From Escherichia coli (GTDB lineage: Bacteria > Pseudomonadota > Gammaproteobacteria > Enterobacterales > Enterobacteriaceae): a stretch of 64,000 nucleotides of DNA. Positions 3,955 through 52,880 of the stretch are shown piece after piece. Position numbers and translations under genes: made by a program. The stretch is taken from NCBI RefSeq assembly GCF_001677475.2, contig NZ_CP015229.1. The stretch is one strand, 5' to 3'. Positions within the stretch are counted from its first letter, which is position 1, and each line of letters begins with the position of its first letter. The notes beneath the pieces are model-generated. The model saw only the letters and a program-made list of their open reading frames with translations, did not search any database and had not been told where the DNA came from.

Positions 3955-4041
3955 TGGTACCCGGAGCGGGACTTGAACCCGCACAGCGCGAACGCCGAGG
4001 GATTTTAAATCCCTTGTGTCTACCGATTCCACCATCCGGGC
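3955..4041 (-). tRNA. leuZ: tRNA-Leu (anticodon TAA)
   Basis: Reverse complement reads GCCCGGATGGTGGAATCGGTAGACACAAGGGATTTAAAATCCC...GGGTACCA; cloverleaf and CCA end. Confidence 0.93.
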
Positions 4042-4053
4042 TCGGGAAGAAAG

Positions 4054-4127
4054 TGGAGGCGCGTTCCGGAGTCGAACCGGACTAGACGGATTTGCAATCC
4101 GCTACATAACCGCTTTGTTAACGCGCC
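4054..4127 (-). tRNA. cysT: tRNA-Cys (anticodon GCA)
   Basis: Reverse complement reads GGCGCGTTAACAAAGCGGTTATGTAGCGGATTGCAAATCCGTC...CTCCA. Confidence 0.93.
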
Positions 4128-4180
4128 AAATTCTTCAGGCTTTTCAGCCAGACATCCGCTTACGCCGATGTCTTTTAAAC

Positions 4181-4256
<76 letters not shown>

Positions 4257-42781: not shown

Positions 42782-42868
42782 AAATCCCGACCCTGAGGGG
42801 GTCGGGATGAAACTTGCTTAAGCAAGAAGCACTTAAAAAATTCGTTACACCAGGAAATCTGATGTGTT
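42782..42868 (-). ncRNA. dsrA: small regulatory RNA DsrA (rpoS activator / hns repressor)
   Basis: Reverse complement reads AACACATCAGATTTCCTGGTGTAACGAATTTTTTAAGTGCTTCTTGCTTAAGCAAGTTTCATCCCGACCCCCTCAGGGTCGGGATTT, the recalled DsrA sequence. Confidence 0.9.
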
Positions 42869-49938: not shown

Positions 49939-50634
49939 TCAGCCCGCGGGTGAAAACGCATCTATCACCTTGTGATCGACACCTTCATTCTCCCCCGCCA
50001 GTTCGGCACTGAGCTTCGCCATAAACTCGACTAAAAAATGCGCGTTGTGCTGCGCCAGCTGCTTGCCTCTTGCGGTTTGCATGGTTTGCGGTAGCTTCAG
50101 CAACTTAGTCTGGAAATGATCCAGCGCGTAACGTTTATCATCAAGCGGGCGATGCTGTGCGAACGGATCTTCGCCATCAAACAGCGCCACGCCCAATGCC
50201 CCTGAAACGGCAAACACGCGCGCCAGGCCAATCGCCCCCAGGGCTTCCAGCCGATCCGCATCCTGGACGATTTTAGCTTCCGTTGTTAAGGGGGCGATTT
50301 GCGCGCTGAAACTGTGAGCGGCAATGGCATGACAAACGGCCTCGATTTTCTCCGCCGGAAATTGCGCGAACTCTTCACGGAGCAGGCGACGCGTCTCTTC
50401 TGCCGCCAGGATTGAAGAACGCTGCCTTTGCGGATGATTTTTCGCCAGGCTCACAATATCGTGAAAATAACAGGCGGTTAAAATCACCAGCATATCGACG
50501 TCATCATCTGCCGCCAGCTTCTGTGCCGTAGCCCAGACGCGGCGAAAATGACACACGTCATGGGCCGCGTCCTGGTGCTGATGATGGTTTTTCAACCAGT
50601 TTTCGAACTGTGCCTGCCAGTGTTGTAAGTCCAT
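49939..50634 (-). CDS. yedJ: HD-domain phosphohydrolase YedJ
   Basis: Start at [14 protein letters not shown]. Confidence 0.9.
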
Positions 50635-50673
50635 ACGCGCTCCGTTGCCAAAGAGTCGCAACCTTAGCAGTTT

Positions 50674-51057
50674 TTATTCATAGCGTCTGCTACGTGCGGG
50701 ACGAGGTCGGGTGTACCAGGCAATGCTGCCTAACAATGCCCCGACCAGAGCCATAAATAAAAATCCGACCAGTGCCCCTAACCACTTTCCCGCGGTAGAT
50801 CCTAAATCGCTTTCAAATCCCGACACCGGGGCATCGGGGATCCGGCTCATCACCCAGATGTAACGCGCCATTGCCCAGACGAAATAGCCACACCATGTAT
50901 AGAAAGCCCACAAAGCCAATTTGCCGCCAGGGCTGCGAGAGAGTCTCTCTTCCATCTTTGTCGAACCGTATTCCATTTTGAGATAACCCGGAAAATTCAG
51001 ACTTAGTACTATTATGTGATAAAAGTCACATTTTTCCACATTGGATGAGCCAGTCAA
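50674..51057 (-). CDS. yedR: inner membrane protein YedR
   Basis: ORF with two TM helices; start codon uncertain. Confidence 0.75.
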   Translation of the reverse strand: MTGSSNVEKCDFYHIIVLSLNFPGYLKMEYGSTKMEERLSRSPGGKLALWAFYTWCGYFVWAMARYIWVMSRIPDAPVSGFESDLGSTAGKWLGALVGFLFMALVGALLGSIAWYTRPRPARSRRYE

Positions 51058-51604
51058 GACTCACTCATTTTTTGAACAAATAGATAATTTTTGCGCAACG
51101 GCAGTGAATACAGGAAAAATCGTTTTGAGTGATTTTATTTATCTTTGATATCAGCTTTATTAATTCATTCAATCAATATATTAGCACTGATTACAATTAT
51201 ACCTTTTTATTATTCTGTGTCATGATGCCTCCGTTATTAGCCTTTTATCGTCTTGTTTATATTTTTAGGGCCGGCATGATGCCGGCTTTTTTTTATGCCT
51301 TCATTAATGTGCGCGAGATCACACCAGCCGTTTGGCGCAACAATCATTGATACTCCCTATCTTTCCGCTCAACGCATAACACATTGATATACAATTATAG
51401 TTTTCATGAATACTTATATTTAGAACTCATAATCCTGAATTATATTAAATAGATTAGAAACATTTTGAAATCTTTTAAATACATTTGTTACATGTAATCT
51501 TTAAAATAAAATGAACTTCATAGAATAGTATCCAAATGTGCTTTTTTTGGATAACGGCACTTATTGATATATTCATGAAGATTATAATCACAAGGGAATA
51601 CATA

Positions 51605-52798
51605 ATGAAAAGAAAAGTTCTGGCAATGCTGGTCCCGGCGTTATTAGTTGCTGGCGCAGCAAATGCGGCTGAAGTCTATAATAAAGATGGTAATAAACTG
51701 GATTTCTACGGAAAAGTAGCAGGTCTGCACTACTTCTCTGACAACTCGGGCGCTGATGGCGATATGTCATATGCCCGTATCGGTTTCAAAGGCGAAACAC
51801 AAATCGCTGACCAGTTCACTGGTTACGGTCAGTGGGAATACAACCTACAAGCAAATGGCACAGAAGGCGATGGAGATAACTCTGCTACCCGTCTGGCATT
51901 CGCAGGTTTAGGTTTTGGTCAGAATGGTACTTTCGATTATGGTCGTAACTACGGTGTCGTATATGACATCGAAGCATGGACCGATATGCTGCCAGAATTT
52001 GGTGGCGATACCTACGCGGGTGCCGACAACTTCATGAACGGTCGTACCAACGGTGTTGCAACCTACCGTAACAATGGCTTCTTTGGTCAGGTTGATGGCT
52101 TGAACTTTGCTTTGCAATATCAGGGTAATAATGAAAGTGGTGGACCATTCGGGCAGGAAGGTTCCGGTAGTGGTGATGGCCGTAGCCTTTCCAAAGAAAA
52201 TGGTGATGGTTTCGGTATGTCAACATCCTACGACTTCGACTTCGGTTTAAGTCTGGGTGCTGCATATTCAAACTCTGATCGTTCAGATCGTCAGGTTGGA
52301 GTTGGTTTAAATGATCGTAACCATAGCAACAGAAATGCTGGTGGTGAAACCGCTGAAGCATGGACTGTTGGTGCAAAATATGATGCTAATAATGTGTATT
52401 TAGCAGCTATGTACGCTGAAACTCGCAATATGACCCCATATGGTGGTGGCGAGTTTGATAATGGTGAATCAAGATCAGCCATCGCTAACAAAACCCAAAA
52501 CTTTGAAGTTGTTGCTCAGTATCAGTTCGACTTCGGTCTGCGCCCGTCCATCGCTTACTTGCAATCTAAAGGTAAGGATTTAGGCGGTTGGGCTCATGAC
52601 GGTAATGGCGATCCGCGTTACACCAACAAAGATCTGGTTAAATATGTTGAAGTCGGTGCGACCTACTACTTCAACAAAAATATGTCCACCTACGTTGATT
52701 ACAAAATCAACCTGCTGGACAACGATGATGACTTCTACGAAGCAAACGGCATCGCTACCGATGACATCGTTGCTGTGGGCTTAGTCTACCAGTTCTAA
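51605..52798 (+). CDS. OmpC/OmpF-family outer-membrane porin (yedS/ompN-like), apparently intact
   Basis: Signal peptide [21 protein letters not shown], beta-barrel porin sequence, C-terminal aromatic YQF. Confidence 0.88.
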
Positions 52799-52842
52799 TC
52801 AGCCAACGCGCTGCGGCGTGTTACTGTAAAACTTAACACTAG

Positions 52843-52880
52843 CCTGAGTTCGTCCCTCATCGAACTCAGGCTTTTTTATT
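52843..52880 (+). terminator. rho-independent terminator after porin gene
   Basis: cctgagttcg...cgaactcagg hairpin plus cttttttatt. Confidence 0.75.

Follow-up and report, generated by a model that had tools for sequence, protein, structure and literature searches.

The hairpin and T-run that lie upstream of a porin gene in this stretch of Escherichia coli DNA are almost certainly the Rho-independent terminator of rseX, a free-standing gene for a 91-nt small RNA. The stretch that we analysed, called the window here, comprises 64,000 nucleotides of contig NZ_CP015229.1 (assembly GCF_001677475.2). A full-length Rfam match, together with synteny and alignment with K-12, identifies the hairpin as the terminator of a known sRNA gene. 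The gene has already been described, with an Rfam family and an entry in the K-12 reference annotation, and nothing about its identity is new; as a discovery it therefore carries little weight. In the E. coli genomes that we inspected, PGAP/RefSeq gives no annotation for rseX, so readers who work from sequence alone keep rediscovering it.

Identity of the gene

The gene and its two neighbours are placed as follows.

51204–51294, plus strand: rseX, the gene for the 91-nt RseX sRNA and orthologue of K-12 b4603 (Rfam and K-12 alignment)
50674–50976, minus strand: drpB (yedR), 100 aa, divergent neighbour of rseX (NCBIfam; start as in K-12 NP_416472.3)
51605–52798, plus strand: yedS-type porin, intact, 397 aa, downstream neighbour of rseX (NCBIfam and K-12 comparison)

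When all Rfam families were scanned over 50600–53400, rseX (RF01401) was the single match, at 51204–51293 on the plus strand, spanning model positions 1–94 of 94 with 98.7 bits against a gathering score of 50 (E 9.3e-14), and a scan of the whole window gave rseX again. The K-12 MG1655 record carries an ncRNA, rseX (b4603), at 2033649–2033739, flanked by drpB and the pseudogene yedS. In a collinear alignment with 97% column identity, this K-12 gene falls at 51204–51294 of the window, with 89 of its 91 bases identical. The order and strands of drpB (minus), rseX (plus) and the porin (plus) are those of drpB, rseX and yedS in K-12, and the wider setting, with vsr, dcm, yedJ and drpB on one side and the porin, hchA and hprS on the other, is the MG1655 arrangement as well. 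The window copy is thus the same gene as RseX of E. coli K-12, in the same syntenic place, with the same length and the same terminator; the two loci differ in the downstream yedS, intact in the window and present only as a pseudogene in K-12.

Both substitutions relative to K-12 RseX can be placed. The first, at 51229 (nt 26), is a C in place of the K-12 U and falls inside a variable hexamer. The second, at 51267 (nt 64), is an A in place of the K-12 U, by which the terminator stem gains an A-U pair at its foot. The exact allele of the window occurs in none of 5426 complete E. coli genomes, the closest sharing 104 of 105 bases. None of these genomes comes nearer to the window than 98.6% over yedI-yedA-vsr-dcm-yedJ or than 97.1% over the drpB-porin spacer. 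The identity of RseX, its boundaries, terminator, synteny and conservation were derived in this analysis, and Hfq binding, targets and H-NS silencing come from the literature on K-12. We infer that this K-12 behaviour holds in the present strain, whose copy differs at two of 91 positions.

The terminator hairpin

51267–51294, plus strand: intrinsic terminator of rseX (terminator scan, folding and stem conservation), made up of a stem-loop at 51267–51289 with its G+C core at 51270–51286, a UGA loop, and an 8-U tail at 51287–51294

On the plus strand, GGGCCGGCATGATGCCGGC occupies 51268–51286 and is followed by TTTTTTTT, eight T at 51287–51294; the original prediction had seen a hairpin and T-run on that strand at roughly 51265..51300, and the sequence places it inside that range. 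A terminator scan calls it at 51267–51289, with ten pairs (six of them G-C), a 3-nt loop and the T-run. Folded in isolation, the 33-nt hairpin reaches −15.2 kcal/mol, where dinucleotide shuffles of it reach −6.8 ± 2.2 (z −3.79; one of 200 shuffles as good). The 111-nt stretch around it, folded whole, is no more stable than its shuffles (z −0.43), so the terminator hairpin is the sole strong and significant structure in that stretch. Within Escherichia its stem does not vary at all, and Citrobacter shows a single compensatory change, from G-C to A-U; folding around the terminator predicted no alternative anti-terminator pairing or competing structure. The hairpin had been suggested to end a small transcript or sRNA; judging by the Rfam match, K-12 synteny and the alignment, that RNA is almost certainly RseX.

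A 3′ hairpin with a U-tail is the usual Hfq-binding module of sRNAs. In RseX, the hairpin and 8-U tail would fix where the RNA ends and, together with the U-rich stretch that precedes the stem, would form the module to which Hfq binds.

Distribution and conservation

The drpB-porin spacer is present as a single copy per genome in 4900 of the 5426 complete E. coli genomes and the rseX segment is found in 4807, the rseX region being missing from about 10%. In E. coli Res13-Lact-PEB21-38-A, everything from rseX through hprS is deleted beside IS1. An earlier survey placed rseX among the variable sRNAs and noted its loss from S. dysenteriae, S. flexneri and E. coli HS (PMC3318445).

For a survey across species we used a pattern of 24 specified bases and one genome per species. 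It matched E. albertii, E. whittamii, two Escherichia species, two further E. coli and Citrobacter amalonaticus, and all of these homologues have the drpB-rseX-porin arrangement and score 70.9–95.2 bits, above the Rfam gathering score. Salmonella was not among the matches, which says nothing about Salmonella rseX because the 24-base pattern is strict; homologues have been reported there (PMC3632133).

Mean pairwise identity within Escherichia differs sharply by segment.

RseX nt 13–23: 100%
RseX nt 24–29, the variable hexamer (51227–51232): 48%
RseX nt 30–63: 93%
rseX terminator: 95%
Spacers flanking rseX on either side: 68% and 75%

A conservation comparison had been proposed as a check on this region, with poor conservation to count against the reading; the RseX core proves to be 93–100% conserved across Escherichia, and largely so in Citrobacter. 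That the core is held while the adjacent spacers drift indicates, on sequence comparison, purifying selection on the RNA itself.

Promoter and silencing

51192–51197, plus strand: candidate rseX −10 element, TACAAT, spaced right for a start at 51204 (sequence reading)

Positions T1, A2 and T6 of the candidate −10 are kept in seven of eight taxa. There is no good −35 upstream and a consensus scan returned no plus-strand promoter there, which agrees with a weak rseX promoter; 5′ RACE supports a sigma-70 promoter, as the work of Douchin (2006) is cited in PMC8313858. RseX has repeatedly gone undetected in wild-type E. coli and Salmonella (PMC8313858; PMC1804206). On northern blots the ~91-nt band was seen only in a Δhns strain, along with a species of ~75 nt, and by RNA-seq rseX was more strongly derepressed in hns stpA double mutants (PMC8313858). 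The spacer is AT-rich, as had been noted at the outset, with 30.2% G+C compared with 49.2% for the whole window, and this composition agrees with silencing of rseX by H-NS. In the mechanism that we propose, a weak sigma-70-type promoter would seldom fire because H-NS silences the AT-rich spacer, with StpA as a back-up.

Such silencing could also be read as decay: rseX would be a relic in this strain, permanently shut off by H-NS, with a terminator that ends no physiologically relevant transcript. The failure of several studies to detect native RseX in wild-type cells fits this account, as do the loss of the gene from some lineages and from about a tenth of complete E. coli genomes, and its absence from PGAP annotation. 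Against it stand the RseX core, 93–100% conserved across Escherichia next to spacers at 68–75%, and a TraDIS study of S. Typhimurium, which reported that rseX is required there (PMC3632133). We consider decay unlikely.

The strongest promoter-like match of the region is on the other strand: ATGACA-16-TATAAT at 51196–51223 (minus, 11 of 12 positions), which overlaps the rseX start and faces drpB. Every Escherichia sequence keeps both hexamers, with a variable spacer in between, and the −10 is not kept in Citrobacter. Perhaps the element serves as a divergent or bidirectional promoter; alternatively, it is conserved just because it overlaps the rseX −10 region and RseX nt 15–20. If it is a real divergent promoter, which we hold to be doubtful, drpB would gain a long alternative leader that competes with initiation at rseX.

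The RNA body and its targets

51216–51266, plus strand: conserved, mostly unstructured body of RseX (nt 13–63), the presumed target-pairing region (identity and pairing prediction)

RseX, a 91-nt RNA, lowers OmpA and OmpC (PMC7648144). It binds Hfq and targets the ompA and ompC mRNAs (PMC7553319), and Hfq binding is also given in the Rfam family description of rseX (RF01401). Further direct targets are fimB and ihfB, and the site at which RseX pairs with ompA has never been mapped (PMC8313858).

The Rfam family has a 5′ stem-loop at model positions 14–38. It can form in the window, where its pairs are only A-U and G-U; among the nine sequences compared it shows no covariation and a pair is broken in two, and RNAalifold favours another weak helix. 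Given these breaks and the lack of covariation in the 5′ stem-loop, we regard nt 13–63 as a mainly single-stranded pairing platform.

Because ompA and ompC lie outside the window, pairing was predicted against the K-12 leaders of both. With the targets limited to positions −35 to +20, the best duplexes place RseX nt 23–36 over the Shine-Dalgarno region of ompA, and nt 30–39 against ompC −11 to −2, covering its Shine-Dalgarno sequence. The energies are only marginally better than those of shuffled sRNAs (z −1.5; 20–23 of 300 shuffles as good). The C that the window copy has at nt 26, in place of the K-12 U, is predicted to contribute one more G-C pair to the duplex with the ompA Shine-Dalgarno sequence. 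Unrestricted duplexes of RseX with ompA, ompC and the adjacent porin are long, loop-ridden and no better than shuffles (z −0.2 to −1.3), and no affinity is predicted between RseX and the ribosome-binding site of the adjacent porin (z +1.5).

Taken with the K-12 literature, the predictions suggest how RseX would act. Helped by Hfq, nt 13–63 would pair across the ribosome-binding sites of the ompA and ompC mRNAs, and also those of fimB and ihfB; this pairing would block translation and leave the cell with less of these outer-membrane proteins.

The intergenic region, drpB and CRP sites

The product of drpB matches the NCBIfam equivalog div_DrpB_YedR with 151.6 bits (cutoff 50). Its start has been determined experimentally as ATG-22, which maps to 50976 of the window, as in K-12 NP_416472.3; the promoter of drpB has been delimited to the interval from GTG-1 (window 51039) to ATG-22 (window 50976), and the start codon is without a credible Shine-Dalgarno sequence (PMC7648144). 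A 127-aa frame that reaches out to a TTG at 51057 was rejected as a spurious extension of drpB, given the demonstrated start at ATG-22. PGAP gives a 93-aa version of drpB in other genomes. With drpB starting at 50976, the intergenic region runs from 50977 to 51604, and 50977–51057 is promoter and leader, not coding sequence. The earlier description of some 550 bp without a convincing open reading frame thus holds as to the absence of a coding frame and falls short as to length, the non-coding stretch being the longer 50977–51604.

A pattern scan found two TGTGA-N6-TCACA palindromes, one on each side of rseX.

51015–51030: CRP site 1, TGTGATAAAAGTCACA, both half-sites perfect, within the drpB promoter region
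51308–51323: CRP site 2, TGTGCGCGAGATCACA, one mismatch to the pattern, 14 bp 3′ of the rseX terminator

CRP site 1 is conserved as far as Citrobacter and abuts a minus-strand CATAAT hexamer (51016..51011). CRP footprinting in vitro detected the identical K-12 sequence at 2033477, labelled '(yedR)' (PMC12871828). A literature search on CRP control of drpB found no study. The half-sites of CRP site 2, which lies 282–297 bp upstream of the porin ATG, are conserved across Escherichia and its centre is variable. A CRP site mapped by ChIP-seq in ETEC H10407, CGTGATCTCGCGCACA (yedR/ETEC_2066), is, as its reverse complement, one nucleotide away from CRP site 2 (PMC4287617).

The downstream porin and its leader

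51448–51604, plus strand: near-invariant porin promoter and 5′ leader, ~160 bp (identity and promoter scan)

The porin belongs to the NCBIfam OmpC subfamily (541 bits, cutoff 484) and shares 93–97% identity with the two parts into which a frameshift divides the K-12 yedS pseudogene. Within its leader block, a promoter scan found a promoter-like TTGTTA-16-TAAAAT at 51485–51512, and GAAACATTTTGAAATC stands at 51457–51472. The block is 97% identical within Escherichia and 94% when Citrobacter is included, compared with 75% and 63% for the spacer just upstream. With two documented CRP sites and so highly conserved a promoter and leader, the surmise that this might be a regulatory region comparable to those upstream of other porins was sound. 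We looked for OmpR boxes in the leader and do not claim any, since the match to the ompC upstream region is just 11 nt (ACATTTTGAAA, in the OmpR C1 box region) and is not significant (E 0.27). When the two upstream regions are compared, only the part that codes for the signal peptide aligns (73%). A search of the literature for regulation of yedS by MicF found nothing usable.

The original prediction had also placed the hairpin within the porin leader, and here it has to be revised: RseX is an independent gene, and its known targets, ompA, ompC, fimB and ihfB, are elsewhere in the genome. A rival account makes the hairpin a cis-acting attenuator or leader terminator, with porin transcription beginning at about 51204 and the hairpin gating read-through into the porin. 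Its position upstream of the porin on the same strand, and the joint occurrence of rseX and porin in every species examined, suit such a device, which we nevertheless judge very improbable. Between the end of rseX and the porin ATG lie 310 bp, of which some 150 bp, with little conservation (75% in Escherichia), part the terminator from the 97%-conserved porin block, which has promoter-like hexamers of its own. The terminator thus lies outside the porin's own leader, for which there is a separate promoter-like block 150–300 bp downstream. The stem is strong, is followed by eight U and has no predicted anti-terminator partner; RseX accumulates as a discrete RNA of ~91 nt that acts in trans from plasmids (PMC8313858; PMC7648144); and K-12 has kept rseX despite having yedS as a pseudogene.

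It is scarcely credible that the hairpin sits in a small coding gene, arose as an inverted repeat by chance or belongs to a dispersed repeat: a 73-aa frame with a GTG start (51129–51350, plus strand) does span it in the window, but stops at codon 7–24 interrupt that frame in six of eight sequences compared and K-12 has GCG for the start, so we rejected it as coding; the hairpin is far stabler than its shuffles and the covariance-model E value is 9e-14, which speaks against chance; and the sequence occurs once per genome and hence is not a dispersed repeat. The terminator of a free-standing rseX gene remains our reading.

The porin itself is found in several states. Intact here, it is frameshifted in K-12 and split by IS3 in strain 2012C-4227, and it has gone with rseX, hchA and hprS in the IS1-associated loss of strain Res13-Lact-PEB21-38-A. 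The promoter, leader and signal peptide are near invariant (97–100%) and the mature porin is highly polymorphic, as seen in three of the loci compared. K-12, E69 and Escherichia sp. MOD1 carry the window-type allele (90–97%), and some E. coli have, at the same locus and behind the same leader, a porin 53–56% identical to that of the window. By these sequence comparisons, the polymorphism looks like allelic replacement of a surface-exposed protein behind a fixed regulatory region.

Comparison with other porin-repressing sRNAs

RseX has much in common with MicF, encoded by ompC, and MicC, encoded by ompN. All three are short, Hfq-dependent, trans-acting RNAs with a Rho-independent terminator, and each is encoded beside one porin gene and represses a different outer-membrane protein at its ribosome-binding site. 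We observed the adjacency of micF and ompC; that of micC and ompN is said to have been described by Chen et al. in 2004. There is no sequence relationship between RseX and these two RNAs, Rfam assigning the RNA of the window to rseX only. The arrangement differs too, since micF is divergent from ompC whereas rseX is upstream of the porin on the porin's own strand. Expression differs as well: MicF and MicC are easy to detect, and RseX is kept silent by H-NS. MicA and RybB, which depend on sigma-E, share the ompA and ompC targets with RseX, and overproduction of any of the three relieves envelope stress (PMC8313858; PMC1804206). Unlike them, RseX is outside the sigma-E regulon (PMC1804206), and it is unrelated to them in sequence.

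The locus raises the question of why an H-NS-silenced sRNA that represses outer-membrane proteins stays beside a quiescent porin. A tentative answer, and to our minds a doubtful one, is that rseX and an intact yedS form a co-silenced 'porin swap' cassette, in which H-NS silences both and CRP sites flank rseX. If so, derepression would have RseX shut off OmpA and OmpC while yedS is made as a reserve porin, and by analogy the pair would parallel micF-ompC and micC-ompN. With rseX next to an intact yedS, this strain is better suited than K-12 for asking why a silenced sRNA is kept by a quiescent porin, and it offers a direct test of the cassette idea, yedS being a pseudogene in K-12.

Other features of the window

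Three tRNA genes were found in the window by the Rfam scan, which also placed the DsrA sRNA (102.5 bits) and isrK (72.9 bits), directly followed by a C4 antisense RNA (59 bits), above their gathering scores. DsrA lies at 42782–42868 (minus), isrK at 61240–61314 (plus), the C4 RNA at 61340–61421 (plus) and the tRNA genes at 3958–4256 (minus). An isrK-C4 pair is typical of the immunity regions of P1/P7- or P4-like prophages. Near the start of the window, a perfect CRP-type palindrome, TGTGATGTAAATCACA, stands at 182–197, with a one-mismatch copy 30 bp upstream at 152–167.
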